Virus record (IMG/VR): IMGVR_UViG_3300035038_000021
Location: 1 to 35,368 of that record
DNA length: 35,368 nucleotides
Strand: one strand, 5' to 3'
Source: a virus
Shown here: positions 260 through 30,486 of the stretch, one piece after another
How the letters are laid out: each line of letters begins with the position of its first letter
Position numbering within the stretch: position 1 is the stretch's first letter
Program-made: the position numbers and the translations under genes
Notes under the pieces: model-generated
Seen by the model: the letters and a program-made list of their open reading frames with translations, nothing else
Told to the model about the DNA's origin: nothing
Databases searched by the model: none

Positions 260-485
260 CTGAACTCAGAAAAACATCTGCAAAAATATCTAGGAACGTC
301 TGTGTTTTGATTCCGTACCTTTCACAAACTGCTGCTATTTTTTTGTAATCCTTTGCTCCCTTGTATTTTGAAGATTCAACTTGGTCTATTGTAGTGTTCA
401 GCATGTCTCGCAAGTCATATAATCCCTGTACATCTTCATCAGAGGGGTTCATCAATATTGGGTATTCAAGTTCTTTCATACTCAT
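237..485 (-). CDS. Hypothetical protein, 82 aa (start refined to MSMKELE)
   Basis: AGGAGG RBS 8 nt upstream of ATG 485; ATGA overlap with the upstream gene. Confidence 0.65.
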   Translation of the reverse strand: MSMKELEYPILMNPSDEDVQGLYDLRDMLNTTIDQVESSKYKGAKDYKKIAAVCERYGIKTQTFLDIFADVFLSSDSDKERT

Positions 486-607
486 TCTGTTGTCCTCCTT
501 ATCCATTTCAAATAATATTCTTTCTCAATTTTCAGGTCCTCTAATCTCCGTACAGCTCCCGAAACTCCCACATATCGGTTACATTTGCCACATCTGTTGC
601 ACATTTG
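481..607. repeat. 127-nt exact repeat, copy 1
   Basis: Identical to 35242-35368; the flanking bases differ (480 A vs 35241 G). The length equals a common maximal assembler k-mer. Confidence 0.95.
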
Positions 608-667
608 CATACCTCCCCGAATGGGAAGGTAATCATGCCCCGCAACAAAACATATCATGCGTTTCAT
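482..667 (-). CDS. Small Cys/His zinc-binding protein (DUF1660-like prophage protein)
   Basis: C-x4-H...CxxC pattern (CFVAGH...CNRC); ATGA coupling on both sides. Confidence 0.55.
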   Translation of the reverse strand: MKRMICFVAGHDYLPIRGGMQMCNRCGKCNRYVGVSGAVRRLEDLKIEKEYYLKWIRRTTE

Positions 668-957
668 GTTGTTCTCTCTATGATGTATCCAGAGTCATTT
701 TCATAACCAAATTCATCAATTGCATCGTTCCAACAAGCAATTGCCATATATGTGGTCCCATAATCTATATCTCCCCACACGTCTTCATAGCGATACCCAG
801 GATGGCATTTTGTGGGATCATACCCGCATTCCATACACTCAACATATATATCACAACAGTCTACACCGGAACGGATTGATTGTACATCAAAAACCGTGCT
901 ATTTCCACAACTGGGGCACGGACGTGCATATTTTTTATTTTTCAATATTGCTTTCAT
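664..957 (-). CDS. Lar-like restriction alleviation protein (Zn ribbon)
   Basis: PCPSCG...YVECMECG...AIACWN matches the Lar family pattern. Confidence 0.6.
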   Translation of the reverse strand: MKAILKNKKYARPCPSCGNSTVFDVQSIRSGVDCCDIYVECMECGYDPTKCHPGYRYEDVWGDIDYGTTYMAIACWNDAIDEFGYENDSGYIIERTT

Positions 958-973
958 TCCTCTGTCCTACCTT

Positions 974-991
974 TGTCCTTTATTTGTCGGA
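974..991 (-). repeat. Gene-boundary repeat C (TCCGACAAATAAAGGACA)
   Basis: 18-nt exact copy at 1866-1883; begins immediately after the MTase stop codon. Confidence 0.9.
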
Positions 992-1858
992 TTAGGTTAG
1001 TCTTTCAGCAATACTTCGTATGACTGAAACAGTTACAGCATTTCCCAAACACCTATATCGTGCAGTGTCACTTACTCCTGCTGTCCAGTTATCTGGGAAT
1101 CCCTGTAATCTTTCACACTCTATAGGAGTTAGTCTCCGGATATTTTCTTTCTCCGGTATTATTGTCATATCAGAATGAAGGCCACCGGAATGACCTCCTC
1201 CTGTAAGACAACGTGCAACATCTGGTACAAAAACATATGAACCGTTCCATGCTGCATATCCTCTTTTTGTTAAGGTTCGTGCAATGTCGTGTACTTGCCT
1301 TGTTTTTTGATTACATGTTTTTTCATTTTGTCTGATAGGAAATACTTGTCTTCCACCTGATCCTCTAAGATGTCCGACAATGAACACCCTCTCCCTATTT
1401 TGTGGGACTCCAAAGTATTTGCTGTTAAGAACCTGCCATTCGACATCATACCCCAATTCATCCAGGACAACGAGTATTTTTCCGAATGTCCTTCCATTGT
1501 CATGTGAGAGCAAGCCTTTAACATTTTCGAGGAATAATGTTTTAGGTCTTTTCGCTTCACACACCCGGGCAATCTCATAAAAGAGCGTGCCTCGTGTGTC
1601 TTTGAATCCTCCTCGTTTCCCTGCGAGTGAGAAGGGCTGGCATGGAAATCCTCCAACGAGCATATCAATGTCGGGGATTTGTTCCGCTTCGATGTTTTTA
1701 ATGTCTCCATATAATGTTTCACTCCCGAAATGGTTCTGATAGATTGTTCTGGCTGCTTTGTCTATTTCCGATGCAAATACTATTTCAGAAGAAGGGATTG
1801 CTTGTTTAATACCCAGATCAAACCCCCCTATCCCTGCAAAAAGTGACGCAATCCTCAT
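992..1858 (-). CDS. DNA cytosine-5 methyltransferase (solitary)
   Basis: Motifs I FAGIGG, IV GFPCQPFS, VI ENV, VIII QNRER and X GNAV; no cognate endonuclease adjacent. Confidence 0.95.
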   Translation of the reverse strand: MRIASLFAGIGGFDLGIKQAIPSSEIVFASEIDKAARTIYQNHFGSETLYGDIKNIEAEQIPDIDMLVGGFPCQPFSLAGKRGGFKDTRGTLFYEIARVCEAKRPKTLFLENVKGLLSHDNGRTFGKILVVLDELGYDVEWQVLNSKYFGVPQNRERVFIVGHLRGSGGRQVFPIRQNEKTCNQKTRQVHDIARTLTKRGYAAWNGSYVFVPDVARCLTGGGHSGGLHSDMTIIPEKENIRRLTPIECERLQGFPDNWTAGVSDTARYRCLGNAVTVSVIRSIAERLT

Positions 1859-1865
1859 GATAATC

Positions 1866-1883
1866 TGTCCTTTATTTGTCGGA
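1866..1883 (-). repeat. Gene-boundary repeat D
   Basis: Identical to 974-991; ends 7 nt upstream of the MTase ATG. Confidence 0.9.
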
Positions 1884-1888
1884 ATCTG

Positions 1889-2788
1889 TTATGCTACACA
1901 TCTGGAATAATCTGCAATGTCACAACTCCAGAATGCCCACTTGCGATTAGCCCATCTTTGCAGTTCCTTTATTCGTTTGCTTTTCTTATGATCCACGTTG
2001 AACATCACAAATGGATTGCAGTTCATTTTCTTGAGTTCTCTGCACCTATACACTCCTGTATTGTATTCCTGATCCGAATCAACATAGACATAGAATTGTA
2101 CCAGGGATTTTAGTTTTGATTTGCTGAAACCTGCCTGCTCCAATACTGCTATCTTCTCTTTGATTGTTTTCTCATCTCCTATATGATCCCATGCAAAGAA
2201 TATTGATTTCCAAATCCTCATTTTGAGCAATTGTTCTGCTATTTCAACATCAGTCAATCTAATATCTAATCCCTGTGTGAACCAGACGTTAAGTTTTTGT
2301 TCGATACACCAATCAGTGATTTCAAAGAACCATTCACGATCACCGAGGATATTATTATCCAGGAACATAATTTTATCAAATTCTGGATTGTGCCACTCTT
2401 TTGGGTGTTGCGTTCTTCTCAACTTCCCTTCCTTTCCAGGAACAATGCAAAAATGACACTTTCGGAAACAACCTCTTGTAGCAAATCCTATTGAGTAATC
2501 AATATCAGGATATAGACTATAGTCTGGTTTCATGTTCTCAATTTCATCAGGCAACTTCTTTGAAAGATCATAACCAGATCCCCCAATATCTATTTCTGCG
2601 TTCGGATAAAAGAATTTAAGGCCATCTACATGATGCTTATTTTTCCTGAATATCACAGATGCATAGATTTTGTCAGGATCAGATATACAGAACCCTACAT
2701 CGTGTCCTTTTTCTTTGTAGTATGCAGACAGTTTCATTAATGCCAGATTGGGAATTTTACTGTCCACATCTATAAGCAAGATCTTCAT
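1889..2788 (-). CDS. Radical SAM protein with short N-terminal cobalamin-binding-like segment
   Basis: CxxxCxxC (CFRKCHFC), MFLDNN, and N-terminal PNLALMKLSAY...GHDV. Confidence 0.85.
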   Translation of the reverse strand: MKILLIDVDSKIPNLALMKLSAYYKEKGHDVGFCISDPDKIYASVIFRKNKHHVDGLKFFYPNAEIDIGGSGYDLSKKLPDEIENMKPDYSLYPDIDYSIGFATRGCFRKCHFCIVPGKEGKLRRTQHPKEWHNPEFDKIMFLDNNILGDREWFFEITDWCIEQKLNVWFTQGLDIRLTDVEIAEQLLKMRIWKSIFFAWDHIGDEKTIKEKIAVLEQAGFSKSKLKSLVQFYVYVDSDQEYNTGVYRCRELKKMNCNPFVMFNVDHKKSKRIKELQRWANRKWAFWSCDIADYSRCVA

Positions 2789-3006
2789 TTTTCCACTCTC
2801 CTGTACACGTATGTGTTGCCAATTCTGCGTCTGTCCAGTTTGCCCTTGTCAAGCAAATCTAACAGATAGTTGCGGGCCACAGATTGAGTAACATCAAACC
2901 TTTGAGAAATATCTCGCGTGGTTTGATAGCCGTCATCTACGGCCTGCAGTACCTCTTCATCTGTCGCCCTTCTGACAATTCTTCCTGTATTTTTATCTCG
3001 AATCAT
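2785..3006 (-). CDS. Winged helix-turn-helix DNA-binding protein, 73 aa (start refined)
   Basis: TTRDISQRFDVTQSVARNYLLDLLDKGKL followed by a beta-wing; GGAGAG RBS before ATG 3006; divergent from the early plus-strand block. Confidence 0.7.
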   Translation of the reverse strand: MIRDKNTGRIVRRATDEEVLQAVDDGYQTTRDISQRFDVTQSVARNYLLDLLDKGKLDRRRIGNTYVYRRVEK

Positions 3007-3117
3007 AATTACCACTCTCCATTTATGCCTGCAACATATATATACCTTATTCCTATTACCAATATTGGAAGTAAGCATAAGGTATATATAATATGCAATC
3101 ATACACAGTAGTATCGA
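3007..3117. promoter_or_regulatory. Divergent promoter region
   Basis: AT-rich gap between divergent genes with two TATATATA tracts. Confidence 0.5.
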
Positions 3118-3369
3118 GTGATGAAGATGAGCAACAAATACACAAATCCAAACCAAGACTACATGGAAAGCAGGCCAGATGGATCTTTTCTAATCTGGGA
3201 AAACGAACCATTGATGGATGCGCTTCTGTATAGTTTTCCAGGAAAATACACTCCTATGACGGAGGAAGCAAAACTACAGCATGATGCTATTGTGTTGTGG
3301 GAACGGGAATGCGACAACCAAATACCAGACCCGACTTATGAATTGTCTCCAATATCAATGGAGGCTTAA
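3118..3369 (+). CDS. Hypothetical protein
   Basis: First ORF of the plus-strand block; no recognisable motif. Confidence 0.55.
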   Translation: MMKMSNKYTNPNQDYMESRPDGSFLIWENEPLMDALLYSFPGKYTPMTEEAKLQHDAIVLWERECDNQIPDPTYELSPISMEA

Positions 3370-3378
3370 TTTCTTTTT

Positions 3379-3481
3379 GCCGGAGTTGGGAACATGTGCA
3401 TACTCCATTCTATCATTTCCTGTTGGACTCCCTCCAATCAAACACTCCTGCACATTGTGGGTTCAACTCCCGCATCCGGCG
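3379..3481 (+). ncRNA. tRNA-like element (acceptor stem and T-arm, no canonical D or anticodon arm)
   Basis: GCCGGA (3379-3384) pairs with TCCGGC (3475-3480); T-arm GTGGG-TTCAACT-CCCGC (3457-3473); internal stem ATGTGCA/TGCACAT; intergenic. Confidence 0.45.
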
Positions 3482-3533
3482 TAACCTGCATCAATCCAGT
3501 TGGTGTAGGGATATTATCTAAGGAATGATATGT

Positions 3534-3902
3534 ATGGAAAAATTAAAACAAGAAGAATATTTCGAAATGAAAATGTCTGCGATTCGGAGCCTACAGGCGA
3601 AACTTGCTGACGCATGTGCAGACATCGACAAACAGATAGAAGAACTTATGCAGCGGCGCAAGGAAATTGCAAGTCCAATTGAAGATAAAATAGCATACGA
3701 AGAAGAGCAACTCAAAAAAACCGCACTCGGCTACTCTCACTCCTACAAAGGTGAACTGGGGGAGATCAAATACAGGAAGGGCTACGAAAGGAAATCCTGG
3801 GATACAAAGAAACTCGAAGGCTACGCAGCAGACCATCCTGAAATTATGCATTTCCAGAAGATCACGCAGGTTTCCCCAAATGTTTCTATCAAAATATACT
3901 AA
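3534..3902 (+). CDS. Coiled-coil protein, Gam/Gp157-like
   Basis: Long N-terminal coiled coil followed by GEIKYRK...SWD; directly upstream of Bet; start moved to the ATG with an AAGGA RBS. Confidence 0.45.
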   Translation: MEKLKQEEYFEMKMSAIRSLQAKLADACADIDKQIEELMQRRKEIASPIEDKIAYEEEQLKKTALGYSHSYKGELGEIKYRKGYERKSWDTKKLEGYAADHPEIMHFQKITQVSPNVSIKIY

Positions 3903-3914
3903 GGACTGATACAC

Positions 3915-4664
3915 ATGTCAGAAGAAATCGAAAAATTAACACAAGACCAGAGGTTACAAGTCATGAACCTCATGGAACAAGAAGAGATATCCAAGGACAA
4001 GGCCATTGCTCGTGTCGTAGGTGAGCCGTACACTCCTGATATGGAGACTATCGATGTAAGCCAGCCGGCAGAAGAACCAGAACCAAAGCAGGGAAGTAAT
4101 ACAGAGGTTGCAATACAACAAAACAACCAGATACTACCGGAAAGGCAGGTATCAGAAATCACAATGGGAGATATCAAGGACTATATTTGCCCACAGGCCA
4201 CAGAAAAGGAAGCGTACATGTTCCTCAAACTGTGCCAGGCAAGGAATCTTAACCCATTCACAAAAGAAGCATACCTCCTGAAATATGGTGGCAAAGATGC
4301 GACTATGGTTGTGGGAAAGGATGCATTCACCAGACGTGCCGAAGAACATCCACAGTTCGATGGATTTCAGGCAGGAATTATAGTTGTGAACAATCCTTCA
4401 GGCGACATAGAGAGACGTGAGGGAACTTTCACATTACAAGATGAGGTAATAGTAGGAGGATGGTCTAAAGTCTACAGGAAAGACCGCTCTGTGCCTTATG
4501 TGAATGAAGTATCAATGCATGAGTATGATACAGGCAAATCCTCATGGGCAAAGATGCCAGCGACAATGATACGAAAGGTTGCACTTGTCCAGTCTTTGAG
4601 AGAGGCATTCCCCAGTGAACTTGGAGGATGCTACGATTCCAGCGAAAGGGGCGTGGAGTTGTGA
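3915..4664 (+). CDS. bet: Single-strand annealing recombinase, Bet/RecT family
   Basis: FLKLCQARNLNPFTKEAYLLKY, GKDAFTRRA and W...PATMIRKVALVQSLREAF. Confidence 0.9.
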   Translation: MSEEIEKLTQDQRLQVMNLMEQEEISKDKAIARVVGEPYTPDMETIDVSQPAEEPEPKQGSNTEVAIQQNNQILPERQVSEITMGDIKDYICPQATEKEAYMFLKLCQARNLNPFTKEAYLLKYGGKDATMVVGKDAFTRRAEEHPQFDGFQAGIIVVNNPSGDIERREGTFTLQDEVIVGGWSKVYRKDRSVPYVNEVSMHEYDTGKSSWAKMPATMIRKVALVQSLREAFPSELGGCYDSSERGVEL

Positions 4665-6341: not shown

Positions 6342-6552
6342 TACTACACAACGTAGATATATTAATGTATCGGGCTCGGTCTATACAATTTCAGAAGCCG
6401 AGAAAATAACTAATGTCTGTAGAGATCAGATAAGAGTTATGATCCGCCACGGCAAAGTGGACACGGTCACAATACCAGGTGGATGGGAGAGGATTCCTGA
6501 AACCGAAATATGTAAAATCAAAACACAACATAATAAATTTGCCTGCCGCTAA
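6301..6552 (+). CDS. Excisionase/MerR-like HTH DNA-binding protein
   Basis: YTISEAEKITNVCRDQIRVMIRHGKV...GGWERIPETEI. Confidence 0.7.
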   Translation: MNTAAKRHPFPPHNTTQRRYINVSGSVYTISEAEKITNVCRDQIRVMIRHGKVDTVTIPGGWERIPETEICKIKTQHNKFACR

Positions 6553-6958
6553 CCTCGGACATTTTATCGGTTTGCGGCTCGACAAATACTAACTTTCTAT
6601 TTTTTGTGACTGTAATGTTGAGGGCATGGTTGCCGTTTTCTCTATGGATCCACGCAGTACCAAACGCAAGATGGCTATCCCAATCCCTAACATCTCCCTT
6701 TAGGGATTCGGCGAAGTCATCACAGTCATATATTGTTTTTTTGTATTGCTTTTTGTCAATCTGATTCCAGGCAAGGAAATAAGATAGTGAGGGTATATCA
6801 GCAAGTTTGAACCTGCTATCTGCAAGGAATATGTCTGCTTCGGATGTGGAGTATATCTCCAGAAGTCCTCTCAATTCCTTGCTGGTTATCTCTGCTTCTG
6901 CTTCCTGTTGTGGCATGAATGCCGATACCAGCCCATTGATAGCGGATATTAGACTCAT
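6518..6958 (-). CDS. Papain-like cysteine protease (MOA agglutinin C-terminal-like)
   Basis: YDCDDFA...HALN...FVEPQ gives a Cys-His-Glu triad; last gene of the tail operon; start refined to MSLIS. Confidence 0.7.
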   Translation of the reverse strand: MSLISAINGLVSAFMPQQEAEAEITSKELRGLLEIYSTSEADIFLADSRFKLADIPSLSYFLAWNQIDKKQYKKTIYDCDDFAESLKGDVRDWDSHLAFGTAWIHRENGNHALNITVTKNRKLVFVEPQTDKMSEVSGRQIYYVVF

Positions 6959-6959
6959 A

Positions 6960-7736
6960 TTACACCCTCGCAAACCCGATGAAATCTATACTGATAGTAT
7001 TTGTCGTGCCTGTCGCCTTCTCGGCTACTATGCGGATCGTATCACCTACGTCATCGGCTGCTACTGTGATTGTGCCGGATTCGTAGAGTGCATAGTCTGC
7101 GGTTAGCGTCTTTGTGGTGCTGCCTATACTGGTACTGTCGGTCTGATTGTACATTTCCAGTTTCAGGTCATCGGCTACCTGTGCGGTATCCTTTGCCCGA
7201 ACAAAAACCTTGTAATCACCCTCTGGAAGTGCAAAGTCTGATTGCGTGACCTCGGTATATACGTCATCATATTGCGTAGATAGTTGCGTGGCCGTACCAC
7301 CCGAAGCATCGCTGTCAGATACATCCACCTCACCCGTGCCCTGCACATCTTCGGCTTCATAGGCAAGGTCAGATATGGCTCTACCCGATGCCGTGATGGT
7401 TGCGGAAACCGAACTAACCCCTGATTTGATGCGGTTAGTTTTGACGTTTGTAATATTCCCATATACTGCGTCATGCTCACTGCCGAGAACCAGCAATACT
7501 TCAGAATTAATGGCGTTAAGATACTCCAATTTCCTACGTTTTGTCAATTCATCTGTCGTGAGTTTGCCCGTCAGGCTGTATTGCGTAGGCTTGACATACT
7601 TGGGATAGGATTTGATTTGGCCGGTTTGGATTGATGCATATTCAGCCACATCGCTTGCGTGCGCTATCGGAATTTTACGGAGACTGTCTATGAAAACTTC
7701 TACACCTCTACCGTGTATATAATTGAGATATTTCAT
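6960..7736 (-). CDS. Putative tail-tip protein with C-terminal carbohydrate-binding-module-like domain
   Basis: Downstream of the tape measure; beta-rich C-terminus GDYKVFVRA...ISIDFIGF. Confidence 0.5.
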   Translation of the reverse strand: MKYLNYIHGRGVEVFIDSLRKIPIAHASDVAEYASIQTGQIKSYPKYVKPTQYSLTGKLTTDELTKRRKLEYLNAINSEVLLVLGSEHDAVYGNITNVKTNRIKSGVSSVSATITASGRAISDLAYEAEDVQGTGEVDVSDSDASGGTATQLSTQYDDVYTEVTQSDFALPEGDYKVFVRAKDTAQVADDLKLEMYNQTDSTSIGSTTKTLTADYALYESGTITVAADDVGDTIRIVAEKATGTTNTISIDFIGFARV

Positions 7737-12516: not shown

Positions 12517-12818
12517 AATTTGACCTCGCAGTACACAAAGTTGCCATCAAAATCATGTACATGAGATATTGCCAGAATAGAGATATCTTCCTCGCCGTCA
12601 ATGATTATCTTATCATTGTAATCAATATCTGCAGCAACGTAAACGGTTGATTCAGAGACCACTTCTCTTCCCTCTGCATCCTTGACCATGTCTATTTTTT
12701 CCTGAATCCTTGCAGGATATTCTGTTGTTGCTCCGTAGGAATATGCACCGTACCTGTCACGACTGCCTGCTTTGGCAACCTCGATTGTCTGGTTGAGCAT
12801 GTGCGAGATATCAGTCAT
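12513..12818 (-). CDS. Head closure protein (SPP1 gp16-like)
   Basis: Canonical position; size and beta-rich pattern. Confidence 0.7.
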   Translation of the reverse strand: MTDISHMLNQTIEVAKAGSRDRYGAYSYGATTEYPARIQEKIDMVKDAEGREVVSESTVYVAADIDYNDKIIIDGEEDISILAISHVHDFDGNFVYCEVKL

Positions 12819-13266
12819 AGAGATTTGCTCCCGTTATGTCCACATCGTTGGAGTCATAAGGCACGTAGTTGCCAGACCTGTCCGGCATCACTCCCTGCAT
12901 GGTAGCATCCGCTCGCATTATTCCGCTTGATGGTTGACTCCCTGCGGATTTGTTGCTTGTCTGGAGTATTTCTTCATACATCTGCTTCCATTGCGTTTTC
13001 ATCGGGTTGGCTTTCTTGTAGGATACGTCTCCTATCTTCTCGCTTTCCCTGCCTGCAGATGCTTTCATTCGCTCGACATAATCTGCCACCAGGTAGATGA
13101 CTGCCCTGTCATAGAACGTGCTTTGTATTCCGTCTGTGTTTGCATGTACTTGCGCCCATTCATGCAATATGTCAAAGGTATTGATGCTGATAGAATCCTC
13201 TGCATCCTCACCGACTGTGTATAGGTTGCCTGTGACCATGCCGAGCATGTCTGCTGTTGCTGTCAT
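12811..13266 (-). CDS. Head-tail adaptor protein
   Basis: A..YLVA...ESEKIGDVSY...W motif; first of the four connector genes. Confidence 0.7.
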   Translation of the reverse strand: MTATADMLGMVTGNLYTVGEDAEDSISINTFDILHEWAQVHANTDGIQSTFYDRAVIYLVADYVERMKASAGRESEKIGDVSYKKANPMKTQWKQMYEEILQTSNKSAGSQPSSGIMRADATMQGVMPDRSGNYVPYDSNDVDITGANLYD

Positions 13267-14312
13267 TGTTCCTCCTGCATATCTAATGCCATTATGAAAT
13301 CGTCATGTGTTATCTTGCGCCTCTTGCCTGTCTGTAGTGTTTCCTGTAGTGGGATGTATGCTGCATTCTCACATAATGCCGATATATCCGCTCCGCTATA
13401 CCCTTCTGTCAGCAATGCTAGTTCTTCTATATCCACATCACTTGCTACAGGTCGTTTTTTTGTATGGATTTTGAGGATAGCCGCCCTGCCTATCTGGTCT
13501 GGCAGGGGAATGTAGATGTGTCTGCCAAATCTGCCGTGTCGCAGGAGAGCAGGATCAAGAATATCAAACATGTTGGTTGCTGCCATTACGAGAATGTTCG
13601 AACAATCGCTATCAACTCCATCCATCTGTGCAAGGAGTTCATTGACAACACGTTTTGCGAATGGTTCTGCGCTTGCTCTGTTGCTTGCGATACTGTCAAT
13701 CTCGTCAAAAAAGATTATGGCCTTTTCTTCCTGTCTTGCCTGCTCGAATACTTCACGGATCTGTTTTTCTGCCTCGCCTACATACCTGCTGACAATGTCC
13801 GAGGTCTTAACGTTGTAGAATTTTGCATCGCATTCTCCTGCTGTGGCCTTTGCTATCATTGTTTTGCCACAACCAGGAGATCCGTGCAGAAGAATGCCAC
13901 CGCCGGCATTAATTTGATAAAAGTCATAAATTTCAGGATGTGTGAAGGGATGAATAATCATGTTCTGGATTTGTCGTTTTGTAGATTCCAATCCGCCAAT
14001 GTCCGCAAATTTAATATTGCTTGACGTAGGATTGATAATTATACGTTCTGTATCTTCGCCAGATGAGAGCGTGTGTGTCTTTCGTAGAGGTGTGCATAAG
14101 TTGCTTGCCATCGCTTCGAAGTGTTGCGACATAGCCTTACAGGATTCAGCCTCTTTCGCCGAGGGCGCTGATTGTGCAGCAGTTTGGAAGCATTTAGCAC
14201 TTTTTCTATACGCCTCCACGGCCTTAGCCCTGTTTTCATTATCACAAAAAGATTTAGCAGCATGGGCATATCCTCTGCCCCGTGCTGCCATTGCGGTATA
14301 GTTTGCACTCAA
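13263..14312 (-). CDS. vps4: Vps4/CdvC-like AAA+ ATPase with N-terminal MIT-like domain (TTG start)
   Basis: Single AAA domain: Walker A GSPGCGKT, pore loop SRYVG, Walker B IIFFDE, SRH AATN...LDPALLRHGRF. The N-terminal three-helix segment RGYAHAA...AVEAYRKSA resembles archaeal Vps4 MIT. The AAA call is secure; Vps4 orthology is less so. Confidence 0.75.
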   Translation of the reverse strand: MSANYTAMAARGRGYAHAAKSFCDNENRAKAVEAYRKSAKCFQTAAQSAPSAKEAESCKAMSQHFEAMASNLCTPLRKTHTLSSGEDTERIIINPTSSNIKFADIGGLESTKRQIQNMIIHPFTHPEIYDFYQINAGGGILLHGSPGCGKTMIAKATAGECDAKFYNVKTSDIVSRYVGEAEKQIREVFEQARQEEKAIIFFDEIDSIASNRASAEPFAKRVVNELLAQMDGVDSDCSNILVMAATNMFDILDPALLRHGRFGRHIYIPLPDQIGRAAILKIHTKKRPVASDVDIEELALLTEGYSGADISALCENAAYIPLQETLQTGKRRKITHDDFIMALDMQEEQ

Positions 14313-14902
14313 TCAACCAGCTCCTCATCCATATCCGCAAACTCATTCATGCCCTGCTCGCTCTGTATTTCAGCGAGTAGTTCATCCTGAAGTTCATCAT
14401 TGTCGAGTTCTACGCTTCCCGACATTGCCACATCCATAGAGGTATTGAAAAGTTCTGACGCTTTGTCAACTTCCTCCATGCTTGTGCGGATATTGCCTGC
14501 AACCTGCTCGATCTCATCAATGTCTATCCCCAGATTCTTCTGAATATCGGTTAGGCTCTCGCCTATTTCCATTATTTCAGAAACGTTCTCTTGAAGGTCG
14601 ATGGTATCTTTCATCTTGGAATACTTCTCTTGCATTCCGTTTGTAGTATCCAGTTGCTTCTTTAGCATCTGGAATCTACGAGAATGAGATTTGTACCCCT
14701 TATCGTCTCCCTTTTTGAGAGCGGTCTTTGCTGCTTCCCTGGTCTGCTGGAGTTGCTTATTCAGCGTTTTCTCCTTGCCATCCAGTTTGGCGATAGCAAA
14801 TTCAATCTTGCGGATAGTCTTTTGTTTGTCGATAGGTTGCGGAGCTGGCGGTTCGGATTTCCCCAGGCTCTTATTTACGAATCCTTTAAGTTTGTCCATC
14901 AT
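14309..14902 (-). CDS. snf7: ESCRT-III (Snf7/CdvB-like) protein
   Basis: N-terminal amphipathic helix, basic helical hairpin (AAKTALKKGD), GIDIDEIEQ and ELDNDELQDEL motifs and an acidic tail, collinear with Snf7/CHMP4. Confidence 0.8.
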   Translation of the reverse strand: MMDKLKGFVNKSLGKSEPPAPQPIDKQKTIRKIEFAIAKLDGKEKTLNKQLQQTREAAKTALKKGDDKGYKSHSRRFQMLKKQLDTTNGMQEKYSKMKDTIDLQENVSEIMEIGESLTDIQKNLGIDIDEIEQVAGNIRTSMEEVDKASELFNTSMDVAMSGSVELDNDELQDELLAEIQSEQGMNEFADMDEELVD

Positions 14903-14924: not shown

Positions 14925-15239
14925 TTACTTTGACAGGCTTTTCTTTTTTATGGCGTTCTCAACGCCCTTGTAGATTTCTTCTTTCTGCTCGGGTGTTATG
15001 CCATCCTTGCGAGCATCAGCAATTTCTATCTGCTGTTTGGCTCTCATAATGGTACGAGAAAGGTCATCAACGTCAGCATTGTCAATAATGTTGAGCGCTT
15101 TGCCTGCGGGATCCGCCCGAGCAAGCCTTTTGGCAAGTACCAATATGTTCTTGTTGTACAGCCCTATCAATACAAAAAACAAAACCAACAGTTCGGGCCC
15201 GACTGTCAGTACGGATTCTACAATTGTAGCAAATTCCAT
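14925..15239 (-). CDS. Single-pass membrane protein with cytoplasmic helical tail
   Basis: Hydrophobic stretch LLVLFFVLIGLY...ILVLA followed by a charged helical region; GGAGG RBS. Confidence 0.75.
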   Translation of the reverse strand: MEFATIVESVLTVGPELLVLFFVLIGLYNKNILVLAKRLARADPAGKALNIIDNADVDDLSRTIMRAKQQIEIADARKDGITPEQKEEIYKGVENAIKKKSLSK

Positions 15240-15280: not shown

Positions 15281-15311
15281 CTATATAAGATATAGTTGCA
15301 GACTATATAAA
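15281..15311 (-). promoter_or_regulatory. Tandem archaeal TATA boxes upstream of the membrane protein/ESCRT genes
   Basis: TTTATATAG (15311-15303) and TTATATAG (15288-15281) on the coding strand. Confidence 0.45.
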
Positions 15312-15315
15312 TGTG

Positions 15316-15561
15316 TTATGACATTTTCGCTAATTTTAGAATCTTATTAACCCAACTATTCGCAGTTAGCCCAAAAAAGAGTGCAGCATACCAACTGGAA
15401 TCGGGGAATACTGCGTCATAACACATGGCTGTGATGGTCATTGCAATCATGAGAACGGATAGGTAATGACTATTGTAATGTATATCAGGTTTCTTCTTTT
15501 TGGCTATACGATACCCTATTGTGTGATAGAGCAATTCCCCGAAAAGCGCAACGTAGAACAT
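15316..15561 (-). CDS. Small multi-pass membrane protein (holin-like)
   Basis: 81 aa with 2-3 hydrophobic segments and a basic C-terminus; TTTTATATAT 24-33 nt upstream of the ATG. Confidence 0.6.
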   Translation of the reverse strand: MFYVALFGELLYHTIGYRIAKKKKPDIHYNSHYLSVLMIAMTITAMCYDAVFPDSSWYAALFFGLTANSWVNKILKLAKMS

Positions 15562-15686
15562 AAATATATATATGCCTCAAAAGGATATATAAAAGTATAG
15601 TCGATGTGGCTAAGGCTTGATACACGTCAGACTGGTTTGCAGAATAGAATTAAAAGGGTGGTGGGTTGCACTTCCACCTTATTTTT

Positions 15687-16608: not shown

Positions 16609-18396
16609 TCATGGGATAAACTCGAAGCGAGCGCCGAGACTCCGATTCGAATACGAAGACCCGTTAGCCGAATTCAGAGAACCGACCCCCGCAAGCGACC
16701 CGTCAATCCAAGTCCCGCCGGAGAGCAGAATGTTTGTTTCTCCTGCATCATGGACATAGAAGTAGTCGCACAAATACGTTGAACTACTGCCTGCGGTCTC
16801 TGAACCTATCATTAGATATTGAAGCAGATTTTCGGTCTCTACATCGGATTGATACCCATCTCCAGCGGTTGGGGGAGTAACGATACTTGCTTCGTATTCT
16901 CCTGCGGCAAGGTCACCTGCCAGAACACCCGTGCCGTCTCGTTTGCTGATTCTGTATTCTGCATCGACTGCTGTATATCCAATACAGAATTTCCACACAT
17001 TTCCCCAGAGGTTCTCCAATCCACGATATGCAATCGGAGTATATCCATCTGAGCCTGTGCCGGTGCCTGTACCATTAATTCCGACATTCGAATCTATGGA
17101 GTCTGCCCCTGTCAGTTCGCCGGCAAACCCAGTACCAGCATCTAAATCTACTACACCCCTGCCAAGTGCGGTTTGACTGTCCAAACTACCCATTTCAGTA
17201 TAGAACAATAACCGGATTGCAGACATTGTCCAGATATTCATACACCCGTATCCGCTACCGATATTGTTTGCATACAATTCAGCGTCATCTATCGTAAATC
17301 TGCCCGAGTTTGGCAAATCAGGGTAACCGACATTGCCTGTAACAGGTTGTTTTCCTGTAGCGGATTGTAGTTTGAATGTGGTATCCAGAATTCCTGATGC
17401 TTCATATGCAGAAATGAACATTTCCGGTACTTCTACTCCACCTCTCATACGTGTATTTGGGAATCTCTCAAATCCTGACAATCTTACAGGTGATAACCAA
17501 ATCCTAATGTATCTACTATCTGCATAATATTTAACATCAAATGCAGGCAACCTTACCATTACATTACCAGATGCACCTGTAAGGTCAAGTCCATCGCCTC
17601 TAGGATTGCTTCCATAAGTAACTTCACCTGTTGCAGGATCAATTACACACCGCCAAATATTTCCCCATATAGCATGGTTATCAAAAAATGATGTATCTGG
17701 ATTGATGGTATTACCATTAATATCAATTTGCCTCAATGACGGTGAACTACTGTCCCTATCCCATTCAAATCCAACAGGCATCATACTCTGGAGTGTTCCA
17801 ACATCATCCATTGTAGCAAAGGGATTGGTACTTGATGGAGTATTTGCACCACTTAATGCTGCTTTTTCATCAGGAGTAGGATCATTTGCATTGGTATGAT
17901 GATCTGTTGCACCGACATTAATTAAATCAGTATGAGAACCACTGAAGTAATTATGAGAAGCATTAGTAGCGTGATTTGTATCTCCATTTATTGCGGTGAT
18001 TGCTTCACTATCGGTATATTTAGCATGATGGGCATCAGTAGCGGAAATATGAGAGTCTATTCGGGGATTAATTCCGTAAGTTGGATCTTCAAACGTGCCT
18101 GCAGTGATAAGTAGCGCCACCATATTTCCTGCCGGATGGCTCGTGTCGGGTGTTTCTTCTTTGCCTCTTGTTACAGTGAGTGTATCTGTGGATTTCGCGG
18201 TTACTTCCACGATCTCAGCGTTGGGATCATCACCGGGAGATGAATGTATATCATAATCCCATATCGTCACCCTGTATGGAAATGAATCAGGAAATAGTAC
18301 CCCTTCTCCTGCTGCTAATGTGACTGTACTATCTCCGGTATTCACATCTGATGCGAGGTTGGATACGGCGTTGTTTGTATAGTGGAAAGGGGTCAT
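16609..18396 (-). CDS. Fibre/receptor-binding protein with C-terminal FGE-type C-type lectin domain
   Basis: GLENLWGNVWKF...GGTW...GARF C-terminus typical of CLec DGR targets; His-rich stalk. Confidence 0.75.
   Translation of the reverse strand: MTPFHYTNNAVSNLASDVNTGDSTVTLAAGEGVLFPDSFPYRVTIWDYDIHSSPGDDPNAEIVEVTAKSTDTLTVTRGKEETPDTSHPAGNMVALLITAGTFEDPTYGINPRIDSHISATDAHHAKYTDSEAITAINGDTNHATNASHNYFSGSHTDLINVGATDHHTNANDPTPDEKAALSGANTPSSTNPFATMDDVGTLQSMMPVGFEWDRDSSSPSLRQIDINGNTINPDTSFFDNHAIWGNIWRCVIDPATGEVTYGSNPRGDGLDLTGASGNVMVRLPAFDVKYYADSRYIRIWLSPVRLSGFERFPNTRMRGGVEVPEMFISAYEASGILDTTFKLQSATGKQPVTGNVGYPDLPNSGRFTIDDAELYANNIGSGYGCMNIWTMSAIRLLFYTEMGSLDSQTALGRGVVDLDAGTGFAGELTGADSIDSNVGINGTGTGTGSDGYTPIAYRGLENLWGNVWKFCIGYTAVDAEYRISKRDGTGVLAGDLAAGEYEASIVTPPTAGDGYQSDVETENLLQYLMIGSETAGSSSTYLCDYFYVHDAGETNILLSGGTWIDGSLAGVGSLNSANGSSYSNRSLGARFEFIP
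16615..16734 (-). other. DGR-type variable region (orphan)
   Basis: 40 consecutive codons with no third-position A at the CLec C-terminus; no template repeat or RT seen in the window. Confidence 0.6.
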
Positions 18397-26383: not shown

Positions 26384-27037
26384 TCAGTACCACCTCTGCG
26401 AAGTCCTGACGTGCTGTTCCACCCATTGCGCATCGTTCTCATGAATGATATGCGCATTCTCTATGTAATGCCTGTATGCGCCCATCTCCACGCCTACCTG
26501 CTCGGCTATATACTCTTGCAATCTACGGAAGCCGTAAGCATCTGCCGGGAATGCTCCCACAACATCATTGCTTCGCATCATCAGAGTCATATCCAGACTA
26601 TCATCGACTATTCCCAGGTATATTTGGGTAGCACATGGCACTTCCTTGCCCTCGCTGGCTTTCATCATGTCAATAGACTTGTAGATATTCAGAACTGCTC
26701 GTCTTGTATCTGGATTAACTTTTAGTTCTTCAATTGCAATAGGTAGCGCATACTGAGTGCGTATTCTCTGGCCATAGGAATACTCAAACTTCTCCCACAT
26801 ATCCCATGCGGTATCCTCGTCCAGCAGACCTTTAGCGAACTCGTCTCCAAATCGCTTTGTGGTAGGCCCGAATCCAGGATATGTAATGTCCGGCTGCACT
26901 ACCTCGACCACTACGTTGCGTAGTTCGCTGATTGTATTGTCACGCTGGTCTGTGCGCTTCTTACCCTGCCACCAGACAGAGCGGACAAGTGCATCGTAGG
27001 CTGCAGGTATATTGCGTCTGGTTATGAGGGTAGTCAT
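26384..27037 (-). CDS. Thymidylate synthase-family enzyme, possibly a dCMP (hydroxy)methyltransferase
   Basis: TRRAV, catalytic VPC, MRSND and NAHI motifs; FPAD places Asp at the Asn177-equivalent position. Confidence 0.85.
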   Translation of the reverse strand: MTTLITRRNIPAAYDALVRSVWWQGKKRTDQRDNTISELRNVVVEVVQPDITYPGFGPTTKRFGDEFAKGLLDEDTAWDMWEKFEYSYGQRIRTQYALPIAIEELKVNPDTRRAVLNIYKSIDMMKASEGKEVPCATQIYLGIVDDSLDMTLMMRSNDVVGAFPADAYGFRRLQEYIAEQVGVEMGAYRHYIENAHIIHENDAQWVEQHVRTSQRWY

Positions 27038-27528
27038 TTGTTATCCTCCAACAATTCTGGATTTTCGTAAATATTGCCGACAACAGTCAAATATTCAGTT
27101 TTTAATTCTTCATCCTCTTGGTCATATATCGGAATCCAGCGTCTATCATCCGGATGTATCAGTTCAGGGAACATGGGGGTTATACCCGAACATCCATACT
27201 TCTCTTCTACAAAATATAAGAAGGGTTTGATACTACCATTGACTTTTATGCACCCTTCTCTATCTCCATATATTTTTTCAACAATGTCACCCTCATAAAT
27301 TTCCTTACCGTTACTATCGTTCAGTCCGGTGTACTGCCCGATTGTTTCAAGCTTGACTATATGTTTTACAGTACCAACAGCCAATGACTTTGTATTGTCA
27401 TTATCAATAAGCCATGTGTTATGGGGATCTTGTAGTACTCCTGTACCGTACAACATTTTACTGCTAAATTTATAACTCCCGAAATCTTTCGGTGGTTTCG
27501 TCATCGCTCTGAACTTAATTTCTCTCAT
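27034..27528 (-). CDS. YopX-family protein
   Basis: MREIKFRA...QYTGLND.NGKEIYEGDIV...VVGNIYENPELL. Confidence 0.9.
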   Translation of the reverse strand: MREIKFRAMTKPPKDFGSYKFSSKMLYGTGVLQDPHNTWLIDNDNTKSLAVGTVKHIVKLETIGQYTGLNDSNGKEIYEGDIVEKIYGDREGCIKVNGSIKPFLYFVEEKYGCSGITPMFPELIHPDDRRWIPIYDQEDEELKTEYLTVVGNIYENPELLEDNK

Positions 27529-29238: not shown

Positions 29239-30486
29239 TTAGAATATTGGTTTGCTTGCGTTGCCGAAGCCACCATATCGTGCTCTGGCTGCCTGGACTT
29301 TTGGAGATACCCTTTTGGGTGCTTCTGTCTGCATTGAGAATATACCATACCTGCATGCATCGAGGATATGGTCAAAGGCTTTGACGGGTTCATCCAGCAC
29401 GTTGCCGTTCTTGTCCTCTTTGTACTTGTAGTTCTGGACTTCTTTCTGGATGCTGGGACTGCATGTGGCATCGACATGAACCTCGTGCGCCTTGACATAA
29501 TCAATTCCGGCTTTAACATCCTTTTTGGCAGGGTGAGCATTGAATCCAGCATTACATATCTCTTCAATACGGTCAGGTTCGGCAGAATCACAAAATATAG
29601 TTGTCTGTCTACCCATACTCTCTTTTTGCATCCAGCGAATCAGATCACCGTTTGTCATTCCACTTTCGTATAACCGTTCACGCAAATAGAATCTATCCTC
29701 ATGACACCATACCTCAACCACAGCCATAGGCGCATTATAACCAAAATCAATCCCAATTGCATGACTGCCATTCTCAAATATGGAATGTCTCCAGTTCTTT
29801 GGATCCTCAAATTTGAAGTGGTTGTATATCTTGTTCTGCAGGACTCCCGGTTCTCCCAATGCATAGATGCGATAGAAGTTCTCATCTACATCCATCAAAT
29901 GCTTAATTTCATTGACGTAAGAGTCCGGCAAGAACTTGTTATTTTTGAAAGTGGAGTGACATATAGCCATCTCGTTGGCCGGCTGGTTTACGAGATCGGT
30001 TATGATCCAGTGATATGCATCAACCGGATTAAATGTGAGATATATCTTATTTTCCTCGGTTGGATTGGATGCACGCAATCGCAGATTGATCTGCATGAAA
30101 TCTTCTTTGCTTATGTCGGTTGCTTCCTCTACCCAGACATAGTTAAGAGAAAGAGATTTTATTTTCTCGGAATCATCCAGGGATTTAAACAGTATTTCAT
30201 TTCCGTTAAAGGTAACTTTCATTTCACTTTTGTTATGCCTATATGGAATATTCATCTCATTAAGCGTATCCATAATCATCTGATAGGCCGTGATACGCAG
30301 AGACGGCAGGGTTTTCCTTGTGACAAGTATCTTTACCCCCTTCCCCTGAATGAATTTAAGGCATATCTCCTGTGCAGTAGCCACAGATTTACCCGATCCA
30401 GCCCCCCCATATATAACAAGGATACGTTTTTTGAGATGGTTTTTAAAAAAAGTAGAGAAATGTTTAATCCTCTTCACGGTCTCCAT
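29239..30486 (-). CDS. terL: Terminase large subunit (PBSX/Terminase_3 type)
   Basis: GGAGSGKS, WVEEA, TFNP, IDFGY and DHILDACRY. Confidence 0.95.
   Translation of the reverse strand: METVKRIKHFSTFFKNHLKKRILVIYGGAGSGKSVATAQEICLKFIQGKGVKILVTRKTLPSLRITAYQMIMDTLNEMNIPYRHNKSEMKVTFNGNEILFKSLDDSEKIKSLSLNYVWVEEATDISKEDFMQINLRLRASNPTEENKIYLTFNPVDAYHWIITDLVNQPANEMAICHSTFKNNKFLPDSYVNEIKHLMDVDENFYRIYALGEPGVLQNKIYNHFKFEDPKNWRHSIFENGSHAIGIDFGYNAPMAVVEVWCHEDRFYLRERLYESGMTNGDLIRWMQKESMGRQTTIFCDSAEPDRIEEICNAGFNAHPAKKDVKAGIDYVKAHEVHVDATCSPSIQKEVQNYKYKEDKNGNVLDEPVKAFDHILDACRYGIFSMQTEAPKRVSPKVQAARARYGGFGNASKPIF

Follow-up and report, generated by a model that had tools for sequence, protein, structure and literature searches.

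The window, a stretch of 35,368 nucleotides of viral DNA (IMG/VR virus record IMGVR_UViG_3300035038_000021, positions 1 to 35,368), carries a gene cassette that has the orientation of the structural genes and is coupled into the morphogenesis gene block. Its features, in the order in which they are read on the coding strand, are as follows.

15316..15561, minus strand: 81-aa small membrane protein with hydrophobic segments; first gene of the cassette.
14925..15239, minus strand: 104-aa predicted single-pass membrane protein with an N-terminal transmembrane segment (about residues 3-37) and a helical cytoplasmic tail.
14309..14902, minus strand: 197-aa ESCRT-III (Snf7 family) protein, by Pfam Snf7, profile comparison with PDB and AF2 fold.
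14309..14312, minus strand: TTGA overlap, the ATPase start codon TTG over the ESCRT-III stop codon TGA, read from the sequence.
13263..14312, minus strand: 349-aa Vps4-like ATPase with an MIT domain, a linker, one classic AAA cassette and a lid (PF00004, AAA_lid_3).
14094..14306, minus strand: MIT-type three-helix bundle, ATPase residues 3-73, by profile, fold and Pfam.
12811..13266, minus strand: 151-aa protein joined to the ATPase by an ATGA overlap; its position is the sole ground for calling it a putative head-tail adaptor.

Both central open reading frames, ESCRT-III (14309-14902) and ATPase (13263-14312), were present on the minus strand where an earlier sequence-only reading of this DNA had placed them, and the TTGA and ATGA overlaps that it described were genuine when read directly. 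The TTG start of the ATPase has GAGGAG 8 nt upstream. Two further observations support this start: relatives have an ATG at the equivalent position (within TAATG), and the seven residues ahead of the internal ATG are conserved (MSANYTAMAAR versus MAETYTTLAAR). The ATGA overlap, with GGAGGA upstream, joins the ATPase gene to that of the 151-aa protein. Start and stop codons of the pair overlap in every viral lineage, the ESCRT-III/ATPase junction being TAATG in L002 and L003 and GTGA in L013; in the cellular loci, a spacer of 4-64 nt separates the two genes instead. Judged from the sequence, the TTGA overlap is a translational coupling of the ESCRT-III and ATPase genes. Co-orientation and coupling with the structural genes bear out the earlier statement that the pair lies inside a tailed-virus morphogenesis block.

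The 197-aa protein is an ESCRT-III protein of the Snf7 family. It matched Pfam Snf7 (PF03357) at an E value of 3e-7 and a score of 30.7 bits (GA, 27.3), with its residues 29-187 aligned to profile positions 2-157 of 171. Within the subfamily, Snf7 was matched independently by 19 of 44 members, and any other family by one member at most. A family profile compared with PDB retrieved yeast Snf7 (7e-5) and then Asgard ESCRT-III, with nothing else at E < 0.02; the best sequence and structure matches overall were yeast Snf7, Loki CHMP4-7 and Heimdall ESCRT-IIIB. All of the motifs quoted in the sequence-only reading were found, namely MMDKLKGFVNKSLG, KTIRKI...AAKTALKKGD, GIDIDEIEQVAGNIR, ELDNDELQDEL and an acidic tail. 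Together with the Pfam match above GA and the profile comparison, they confirm the Snf7/CHMP4 plan that had been proposed for this protein. Net charge is divided between the halves, at +10 (pI 9.8) for residues 1-110 and -23 (pI 4.05) for residues 111-197. The N-terminal helix (residues 3-12) was predicted at a pLDDT of ∼62 and has a hydrophobic moment of 0.51. The subfamily consensus at the N terminus is M..(L)F.KK..P.E, an LFGKKxPxE-type motif that we take to resemble CHMP N termini. Conservation within the subfamily is highest in the C-terminal helix, L[RK]xEL[ML]AE[IL], which in many members is followed by an ELExKI[KR]K tail. One member, P0052, ends in IDARLKDL, which is MIM1-like; the tail of the window protein, F.DM.EELVD, fits neither MIM1 nor MIM2.

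The AF2 model of this protein (pLDDT, 80.6) has helices at residues 3-12, 26-64, 67-124, 129-159 and 169-196. Its hairpin superposed on the Snf7 core at Z 9.3-9.6 (rmsd, 1.9-2.0 Å; 102 residues) and on Asgard ESCRT-IIIB at Z 8.9 (rmsd, 1.8 Å; 103 residues), where a Z of 8-10 is also reached by unrelated long-helix proteins, so that the fold counts only jointly with the sequence evidence. The Foldseek list consisted mostly of ESCRT-III proteins, at weak E values (best, 6e-3), and the top matches of both Foldseek and VIA were ESCRT-III cores. In these terms, the model has the α1-α5 fold of ESCRT-III rather than that of a generic coiled coil. PspA and Vipp1 ranked lower in the fold lists (Z 7.7-7.8), and Pfam scans of the protein and its subfamily gave no match to the PspA family; an identity as PspA or Vipp1 was rejected on these two results.

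[quoted passage not shown] Its profile retrieved from PDB the MIT domain of Calpain-7 (4e-6), VPS4A (9e-5), VPS4B (3e-4) and CdvC (0.08). AF2 predicted three helices at pLDDT > 90, and Foldseek superposed the domain on the VPS4A MIT at an rmsd of 1.0 Å over 66 residues and on that of Sulfolobus solfataricus CdvC at 2.0 Å over 72-73 residues. Pfam MIT matched the window copy at E 0.02, as its second-ranked family, and ranked first in L012, L011 and L014 (9e-6 to 9e-5), all below GA; the N-domain of the L013 ATPase had no Pfam MIT match. The MIT profile found all of the ATPases that adjoin the Snf7 subfamily, including five outside its build set (E 1e-17 to 1e-22), and matched none of ∼110 Cdc48-like proteins.

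The ATPase as a whole is predicted to join this MIT domain to a single AAA module, which is the Vps4/CdvC architecture, and to have intact catalytic motifs. PF00004 matched residues 140-270 (E 1.7e-43) and AAA_lid_3 matched residues 292-331, with a single cassette. Walker A (GSPGCGKT), Walker B (FFDEID), sensor-1 (TN), SRH residues R258 and R261 and the YVG region of the pore loop are conserved, and the catalytic-motif residues fall mostly in invariant columns of a 12-sequence family alignment. Pore loop 1 reads SRYVGEAE in the window ATPase and SKWLGESE in L012. The window ATPase ends 18 residues past the lid, whereas its cellular homologues extend by 30-40 aa; Vps4_C (PF09336) matched neither the window ATPase nor the C-terminal extensions of the homologues. 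Up to residue 347 the protein aligns colinearly and without an insertion to p97 D2, and the β-domain of eukaryotic Vps4 is absent. This insertion is not known to be universal among archaeal CdvC proteins.

By score, the AAA cassette is nearest to Cdc48 D2 and PAN unfoldases (PAN, 265; CDC48, 260; CdvC, 197). The NCBIfam CdvC model (NF041006) aligned end to end but at 197 bits against a cutoff of 650, and relatives scored 205-248 bits, with L011 at 252 for CDC48 versus 248 for CdvC. With a score so far below the cutoff, we rejected the assignment as a CdvC orthologue and call the protein Vps4-like instead. In the ATPase tree, which compared the family with Cdc48 D1 and D2 rather than with canonical Vps4 or CdvC sequences, all family members fell into one clade distinct from both (support, 100/99); within it, the viral copies formed a group (93/60) whose sister was the cellular copies. 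A homologue search with the whole ATPase was dominated by partial two-domain Cdc48 proteins and gave no ranking of Vps4 versus Cdc48. The single cassette, the MIT N-domain and the 100/99 separation from D1 and D2 led us to reject Cdc48/p97/VAT, or a fragment of Cdc48, as the identity of this protein. Of the earlier Vps4 label, the MIT domain and the intact AAA cassette stand; the Vps4 C-terminal helix and the CdvC cutoff do not support it.

The pair occurs in at least two diverged tailed-virus lineages and in chromosomal archaeal loci. Linkage of the two genes is preserved in related viruses and cells, with the ATPase gene following the Snf7-like gene in 10 of the 10 loci, viral and cellular, that had room for both. 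The second tailed-virus lineage, L013, is a 33.7-kb contig with Mu-F, HK97-type capsid, gp10-like, terminator and tail tube genes, and the pair occupies the same site there (identities, 32% and 48%). In both lineages, this slot has the capsid genes on one side and the head-tail connector genes on the other. The Snf7 tree did not settle a sister relationship between the two viral lineages. Single-protein and subalignment scans of IMG/VR, for which the full family alignment was too divergent to serve in pattern scans, turned up a single further contig, identical to L003; GenBank phage records held no match to either viral Snf7 lineage, and scanning genomes with the cellular homologue P0013 gave no match. 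The cellular system was present in 4 of 301 sampled genomes. Its loci adjoin NOG1, GcvH and HflX and share no virion genes with the window, and the immediate neighbours of the chromosomal pairs had no Pfam matches, with no conserved cellular partner identified. The virus has one ESCRT-III paralogue, compared with two in the cellular locus L014 and four in G167.

Two small membrane proteins precede the viral pair. The 81-aa protein has a strong hydrophobic segment at residues 33-53 and two weaker ones, and TTTATATA lies upstream of its gene on the coding strand (15586-15593). A copy in L013 is 45% identical and in the same place, and L002 and L003 have one too; searches of Pfam and other families gave no match. 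A second TTTATATA (15304-15311) lies 72 nt ahead of the ATG of the 104-aa protein. A single-pass membrane protein always comes before the viral ESCRT-III gene: in L002, L009, L010 and L013, the gene immediately ahead of the Snf7-like one encodes a protein of the same architecture, which shares the motif A[ED][NR]AD[VP] and ends in a basic KKK tail. None was seen adjoining the cellular ESCRT-III/ATPase pairs. An Atlas search with the 104-aa protein returned neighbours only at the noise level (0.79), one cluster of which was automatically named "putative phage holin." We regard this protein as a candidate membrane anchor or nucleator for ESCRT-III, or a candidate holin-like protein. No holin or VAP family was detected in family searches of the window or in the Atlas search with the 104-aa protein.

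On the other side of the pair, the 151-aa protein is 38% identical to its L013 counterpart and is followed by genes for a 101-aa protein and for gp10-like, tail-terminator and tail-tube proteins. The name head-tail adaptor given to it earlier fits its position before the gp10-like and tail-terminator genes; the protein had no family match of its own. The tail module closes with a domain of papain-like cysteine protease type (6518-6973; Agglutinin_C, above the Pfam cutoff) that could, from its sequence, be a lysin. The proposal that the ESCRT pair acts instead of a canonical holin-endolysin system is weakened by this protease and by the two small membrane proteins, and the virus may have lysin and holin-like proteins alongside the pair.

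A host among the Methanosarcinales, as had been suggested, found no support. The nearest relatives of the viral MCM were Thermoplasmata metagenome-assembled genomes (MAGs), a weak pointer, and the cellular carriers of the Snf7 subfamily had no mcrA match. The Snf7 subfamily was absent from five Thermoplasmata genomes, no provirus with the portal of this virus was present among 301 genomes of the phylum of Thermoplasmata, and its capsid gene was not found in the five genomes tested.

ESCRT-III and Vps4 form a conserved membrane-scission machine of archaea and eukaryotes that viruses hijack, and a few viruses carry ESCRT-III look-alikes. Sulfolobus CdvB and CdvC act in cell division, vesicle formation and virus budding, and Sulfolobus viruses, STIV and STSV2 among them, make use of the host ESCRT in place of a system of their own. 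The viral system is like CdvB/CdvC of the Thermoproteota in pairing ESCRT-III with an MIT-AAA protein whose MIT domain superposes on that of S. solfataricus CdvC at 2.0 Å. It differs in that CdvA is absent, ESCRT-III has neither a wH domain nor a proline-rich MIM2, and the score with the CdvC model, 197 bits, is far below the equivalog cutoff of 650. With the eukaryotic and Asgard Snf7 (CHMP4)-Vps4 systems, it shares the basic and acidic halves and an MIT domain resembling those of VPS4A/B, and the subfamily consensus has the LFGKKxPxE-type motif, but identity is ∼20%, the ATPase is without the β-domain and the C-terminal helix, the ESCRT-III tail is not a canonical MIM, and there are no ESCRT-I/II or ubiquitin components. 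The non-TACK ESCRT systems of archaea include a Vps4 (arCOG01307) and ESCRT-III and are patchily distributed, with minimal forms of ESCRT-III and Vps4 only described in Thermoplasmata (Makarova et al. 2024, PMC11188069). The cellular loci L014 and L061-L063 resemble these euryarchaeal/non-TACK systems, and the viral pair is like them in that an ESCRT-III gene lies directly upstream of a gene for an MIT single-AAA ATPase related to Cdc48 D2. Unlike them, the viral pair is on a tailed-virus genome, has a single ESCRT-III paralogue, is translationally coupled and is preceded by small membrane proteins in place of wH or adaptin-type partners; the viral ATPase has also lost the C-terminal extension of its cellular homologues. 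Among viruses and other elements, herpesvirus pUL51 (10.1101/810663) and the ESCRT-III-like proteins of Borg elements (PMC12660748) are precedents for a self-encoded ESCRT-III fold used in membrane remodelling, the Borg proteins being mentioned with no Vps4. The present system differs from both in being a full ESCRT-III and ATPase pair carried by a nonenveloped tailed virus. To our knowledge, pUL51 has no dedicated ATPase and serves the envelopment of an enveloped eukaryotic virus.

We conclude that the virus-borne minimal ESCRT module is genuine. It probably forms a functional ESCRT-III/Vps4-type machine that remodels the host membrane late in infection. The virus would have acquired the module by capture of an archaeal cellular ESCRT system, and would express it together with the late genes. 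With its basic N-terminal half, ESCRT-III would polymerize on the host membrane from the cytoplasmic side, where the upstream membrane protein is a possible nucleator. The MIT domain of the ATPase would then engage the conserved acidic C-terminal helix of ESCRT-III, and ATP would be used to remodel or disassemble the polymer so that the membrane is deformed or cut. Because there is no canonical MIM, no C-terminal extension and no Vps4_C match, the MIT-to-tail interaction and the assembly of a hexamer are only proposed. As the leading specific role, we tentatively suggest virion release, by membrane rupture or scission with the help of the small membrane proteins and the papain-like protease; this is a possibility toward which we lean with caution. 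A role in lysis or egress is proposed because of gene position only. Canonical ESCRT-III scission buds the membrane away from the cytoplasm. This topology gives naked tailed virions no obvious release and speaks against egress, as does the papain-like protease, which could be the lysin of the same virus.

The viral pair could instead repair or stabilize the host membrane during infection, by sealing the entry lesion, preventing premature lysis while virions accumulate, or patching pores made by abortive-infection effectors. It would then be comparable to the ESCRT-III of eukaryotes, by which pores of gasdermin and MLKL are mended, and to PspA and Vipp1, which protect membranes. Repair, unlike lysis, follows the normal ESCRT-III topology, a separate candidate lysin is present, the fold of the 197-aa protein also matches PspA and Vipp1 at lower rank, and membrane repair is tied to the ESCRT-III/PspA superfamily as its proposed ancestral role (Makarova et al., PMC11188069; PSP survey, PMC11237479). 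Yet the cassette is within, and coupled to, the late structural genes and not early or antidefence genes; PADLOC gave only generic AAA matches in the window (IetA and TRIP13) and no link to defence or antidefence, and nothing indicates pore-forming defences in the host. We consider membrane maintenance or counterdefence unlikely. Native topology, budding away from the cytoplasm, would also suit a module that drives outward vesicle budding, with receptor shedding for superinfection exclusion, decoys, or export of virions or DNA in vesicles as variants, or one that interferes with host division. ESCRT-dependent vesicle budding is established in Sulfolobus (PMC10117752; 10.1101/2021.02.09.430445), and the cellular homologues come in multiparalogue sets typical of vesicle and division systems (two in L014, four in G167). 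The virus, however, has a single paralogue, and family searches recognized no wH or ESCRT-II-like cargo or adaptor genes near the viral pair. The rarity of the cellular system (4 of 301 genomes) means that the host may have no ESCRT to interfere with, and we hold this explanation to be improbable.

The slot between capsid and connector genes, the ATGA coupling to the putative adaptor gene and the closeness of the AAA cassette to Cdc48 D2 and PAN unfoldases are what one would expect if the ATPase unfolded capsid, scaffold or connector proteins or helped in their assembly, with the helical protein as its adaptor. The same pair nevertheless has chromosomal copies, in loci with none of the window's virion genes, the partner of the ATPase belongs to the Snf7 family, the N-domain of the ATPase is MIT, an ESCRT-III-binding module, and membrane proteins are conserved upstream, all of which make a morphogenesis chaperone very unlikely. 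Least credible of all is a chance resemblance, in which a generic coiled coil stands beside an ordinary AAA ATPase with no ESCRT kinship. Helical proteins do obtain middling structural scores against many folds, the Foldseek E values were weak (6e-3 at best), and the Pfam MIT match of the window copy itself was at E 0.02 only. Against this, Pfam Snf7 exceeded its curated cutoff with nearly the whole profile aligned, Snf7 was the sole family common across the subfamily, and nothing other than Snf7 and Asgard ESCRT-III was retrieved from PDB at E < 0.02. The MIT assignment was reproduced by three methods. On the Snf7 matches, the MIT assignment and the strict linkage of the two genes, we rejected the generic coiled-coil reading.

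The sequence-only reading had been aware of no such arrangement in a head-tail virus. We found no description of a complete ESCRT-III and ATPase core on a nonenveloped head-tail virus in the literature or in GenBank phage records. A 2024 review calls the machinery by which head-tailed archaeal viruses leave their hosts completely uncharacterized (PMC10791045). It is conceivable, if somewhat doubtful, that some tailed archaeal viruses exit by means of a self-encoded ESCRT machine composed of a membrane anchor, ESCRT-III and a Vps4-like ATPase. If true, this would be a third egress system of prokaryotic viruses, beside holin-endolysin lysis and virus-associated pyramids. With those two it may share a functional analogy, as late small membrane proteins together with an effector that breaches the envelope; there is no homology to either, and the proposed effector is instead an ATP-driven polymer system. 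It would also be the first case known to us of a virus that brings the whole ESCRT-III/Vps4 core rather than hijacking that of its host. The very small ESCRT-III/Vps4 pair could serve reconstitution work. The compact cassette of three to four genes is a concrete candidate for the egress of archaeal head-tail viruses that can be tested in vitro, and it adds virus-borne, mobile copies to the picture of the patchy spread of ESCRT among archaea.

The two open reading frames of the pair lie where the sequence-only reading placed them, one of 197 aa at 14309-14902 and one of 349 aa at 13263-14312, both on the minus strand, and the overlaps it described hold as well. The TTG start of the ATPase gene sits on the TGA stop of the gene upstream (GAT TGA / TTG A), with GAGGAG 8 nt upstream of the TTG; the ATG of the next gene sits on the ATPase stop (ATGA) and is preceded by GGAGGA. 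The gene caller began the ATPase at an internal ATG, giving 342 aa. TTG is the better reading, since in relatives of ~70% identity an ATG (TAATG) takes precisely this position and the residues preceding the internal ATG are conserved among them.

The 197-aa protein scored 30.7 bits against Pfam Snf7 (gathering cutoff, 27.3), with residues 29-187 aligned to profile positions 2-157 of 171. Searched exhaustively with HMMER, 1.84 billion representatives yielded 52 clusters. Among 44 aligned members of this subfamily, 19 matched Snf7 independently (best E, 4e-40), and each other Pfam family was matched by at most one. When a 31-member profile was compared with PDB sequences, only yeast Snf7 (7e-5 to 4e-4) and Asgard ESCRT-III (0.01-0.02) stood ahead of noise. 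The AlphaFold2 model, built from the subfamily alignment (mean pLDDT 80.6), begins with a short helix at the N terminus, continues as a long alpha1/alpha2-3 hairpin and ends in alpha4 and alpha5. Its Foldseek matches were nearly all to the ESCRT-III superfamily, with weak E-values. The top match in an all-against-all structural search was the Snf7 core (Z 9.6; rmsd 2.0 A; 102/102 residues), followed by Asgard ESCRT-IIIB, CHMP2A/3, Shrub, CHMP3 and Loki CHMP4-7 (rmsd 1.8-2.8 A). BAR-type helical proteins reached similar Z scores, but at rmsd 5-13 A; structural scores by themselves are not decisive for a helical protein such as this one. Net charge is +10 over residues 1-110 and -23 over residues 111-197, the classic ESCRT-III polarity. 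Jointly, the sequence and structural evidence is decisive, and we assign the 197-aa protein to ESCRT-III, of the Snf7 type proposed earlier.

The 349-aa protein contains a single AAA cassette of the classic type (PF00004, E 2e-43), and with it an AAA lid. Conservation covers Walker A, Walker B, sensor-1, the pore-loop-1 region and the SRH arginines, and most of these residues are invariant in the family. The MIT-like N terminus claimed for it is supported by both profile and fold. A profile of eight N-domains matched the MIT domains of Calpain-7 (4e-6), VPS4A (9e-5) and VPS4B (3e-4), with lower matches to yeast Vps4, spastin and CdvC. The AF2 model of the N-domain is a three-helix bundle (pLDDT >90) that superposes with the MIT domains of VPS4A (1.0 A, 66 residues) and Sulfolobus CdvC (2.0 A). 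Matches of isolated N-domains to Pfam MIT itself were nearly full length but fell below the cutoff: it was the top match for three relatives (9e-6 to 9e-5) and the second match for the window ATPase (0.02), and the ATPase of L013, a diverged tailed-virus lineage, had no Pfam MIT match. Judged by profile and model, the first 75 residues are an MIT domain.

The AAA cassette scored highest against the PAN (265 bits) and Cdc48 (260 bits) models. Against the CdvC equivalog it scored 197 bits, for a cutoff of 650, with the model aligned end to end; in one relative, Cdc48 (252 bits) and CdvC (248 bits) were level. A C-terminal extension of 30-40 residues present in cellular homologues is absent from the window ATPase, and Vps4_C had no match in it or in the homologues examined. 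We therefore describe the protein as Vps4-like by architecture and reject its reading as a CdvC orthologue. In a maximum-likelihood tree comparing the family with Cdc48 D1 and D2, the MIT-AAA family formed its own clade (100/99 support) apart from both. The 591-aa protein P0074, from a 253-kb NCBI contig, carries AAA cassettes in tandem, two in number, that both fall inside the MIT-AAA clade and not with Cdc48; this looks like a lineage-specific duplication.

The pair stands in a linear record of 35,368 nt, with an estimated completeness of ~70%, in which the minus strand carries almost every gene. Features elsewhere in the record are as follows.

992-1858, minus strand: C5 cytosine methylase, an ordinary accessory gene
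6518-6973, minus strand: 151-aa protein with an Agglutinin_C (papain-like cysteine protease) domain (Pfam E 2.2e-9, above cutoff), at the end of the tail module
26384-27037 and 27034-27528, minus strand: thymidylate-synthase homologue and YopX, ordinary accessory genes
29239-30486: large terminase
30918-32132, minus strand: ParB-N6/N4 methylase fusion, an ordinary accessory gene
32161-34257, minus strand: archaeal-type MCM

The MCM and terminase genes share the record with genes for a tape measure protein, a tail tube protein of the lambda type and a Mu-F-like head protein, and on this gene content the record comes from a tailed virus (Caudoviricetes-type) whose replication gene is archaeal. 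The nearest relatives of the MCM come almost entirely from Thermoplasmata/Thermoplasmatota MAGs (35-45% identity), a weak hint of a Thermoplasmata host that runs contrary to the Methanosarcinales host assumed from the sequence alone, for which the analysis gave no support. mcrA had no match in the four genomes that bear the cellular system, and no related provirus was found among the genomes tested. The papain-like cysteine protease domain marks a candidate virion-associated or lytic peptidase and weakens the earlier suggestion that the module is used instead of a canonical holin-endolysin.

Seven metagenome contigs with relatives of ~70% identity share the gene order of the window: 81-aa membrane protein, 104-aa membrane protein, Snf7-like protein, ATPase, 151-aa protein, 101-aa protein, gp10-like protein and tail terminator. 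On the 33.7-kb tailed-virus contig L013, the Snf7-like protein and the ATPase are 32% and 48% identical to those of the window. The pair occupies the equivalent slot, with an HK97-type capsid gene on one side and connector and tail genes on the other, and its start and stop codons overlap as GTGA.

Homologues also occur in non-viral settings (loci L011, L012, L014/L015 and L017). In L014/L015, two Snf7-like paralogues and the ATPase adjoin an NOG1 GTPase and an S8 peptidase; on the 6-kb contig L011, two diverged pairs, each a Snf7-like or 198-aa protein with an MIT-AAA ATPase, lie head to head (416-3982). Of 301 genomes sampled within the phylum to which the Thermoplasmata anchor belongs, a profile search detected the subfamily in four, and the chromosomal copies in those four adjoin GcvH or HflX and have no virion genes in common with the window. 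One of the four, a 5.5-Mb genome, has on a chromosomal contig (locus L062, G167:C175, 4400-8270) four tandem Snf7-like paralogues and then an MIT-AAA ATPase, the largest version of the system among the loci seen.

A Snf7-like gene followed by the ATPase (38-48% identity) was present in 10/10 loci with room for both, so the proposed linkage of the two genes extends to all of these relatives. The MIT profile recovered every ATPase of those 10 loci and 0 of ~110 Cdc48-like proteins. The viral ATPases cluster (93/60) as sister to the cellular ATPases (96/86); the Snf7 tree did not settle whether the two viral lineages are sisters. The simplest reading of these sequences is that a cellular archaeal ESCRT-III/Vps4 system was taken up by an ancestor of these tailed viruses and has since stayed at a single site within the structural block.

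In every viral lineage examined, the gene directly upstream of the Snf7-like gene encodes a single-pass membrane protein (93-105 aa) that has its TM segment at the N terminus, a common A[ED][NR]AD[VP] motif and a basic tail, KKK. Conservation extends to the 81-aa membrane protein (45% identity in L013). Family searches placed neither the 81-aa nor the 104-aa protein in a recognisable family. A TTTATATA box shortly precedes each of the two small membrane-protein genes on the coding strand (15304-15311 and 15586-15593, minus strand), and the window has 6 copies versus 1.9 expected by chance. The boxes are therefore possible archaeal promoters; the cassette may have promoters of its own and at the same time be transcribed on into the connector genes. 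Between the capsid gene and the cassette, large proteins that are fibre-like or contain a Laminin_G_3 domain are encoded at 16609-18396 (minus strand) in the window and at 2205-4477 in its relative L002; the head-to-connector interval looks like a hotspot of accessory genes.

What might such a module do? Its architecture, intact catalytic motifs, strict linkage, conservation in two virus lineages and late-gene position are observed; its functions we infer throughout. From what is established for ESCRT systems, the ESCRT-III protein would attach to the membrane on its cytoplasmic side, through its basic N-terminal core, and polymerise; nucleation or anchoring of the polymer may fall to the upstream membrane protein; and the MIT domain would dock the ATPase on the acidic C-terminal region, so that the polymer is remodelled with ATP. 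The most conserved stretch of the subfamily is a C-terminal helix, L[RK]xEL[ML]AE[IL], followed in many members by an ELExKI[KR]K tail; in the homologue P0052 there is IDARLKDL, which is MIM1-like. This helix and these tails fit an MIT docking site. In the window lineage an acidic F.DM.EELVD takes the place of such a tail, so that docking of its ATPase there is putative.

Among possible roles we tentatively rank egress first, because of its place among the late genes, the holin-sized membrane proteins next to it and the lack of any known egress machinery in head-tailed archaeal viruses (PMC10791045). A role in membrane repair, lysis timing or counter-defence seems rather unlikely, and one in vesicle production or interference with division less likely again. 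That the pair acts as a chaperone away from membranes we regard as very improbable.

The archaeal ESCRT core has been defined as an ESCRT-III and MIT-AAA pair (PMC11237479). A 2024 catalogue of diverse euryarchaeal versions includes minimal Thermoplasmata ones and does not discuss virus-encoded systems (PMC11188069), which are not mentioned in PMC10791045 or PMC12134362 either. Element-encoded ESCRT-III-like precedents are herpesvirus pUL51 (10.1101/810663) and proteins of some Borg elements (PMC12660748). To our knowledge, neither pUL51 nor the Borg proteins have a dedicated Vps4-like ATPase, and neither herpesviruses nor Borg elements are tailed viruses. Within an incomplete coverage of the literature, we found no report joining Vps4, ESCRT and Caudoviricetes, and no virus-encoded ESCRT system was apparent in titles and abstracts on ESCRT, head-tailed viruses and archaea. 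Neither viral Snf7 lineage had a homologue in GenBank phage records, and one other contig was found in IMG/VR. For these reasons we rate carriage by a tailed virus as new. The ESCRT-III/Vps4 machine itself is known; what appears to be new is its complete, streamlined core on a non-enveloped tailed virus, with a membrane partner of its own.
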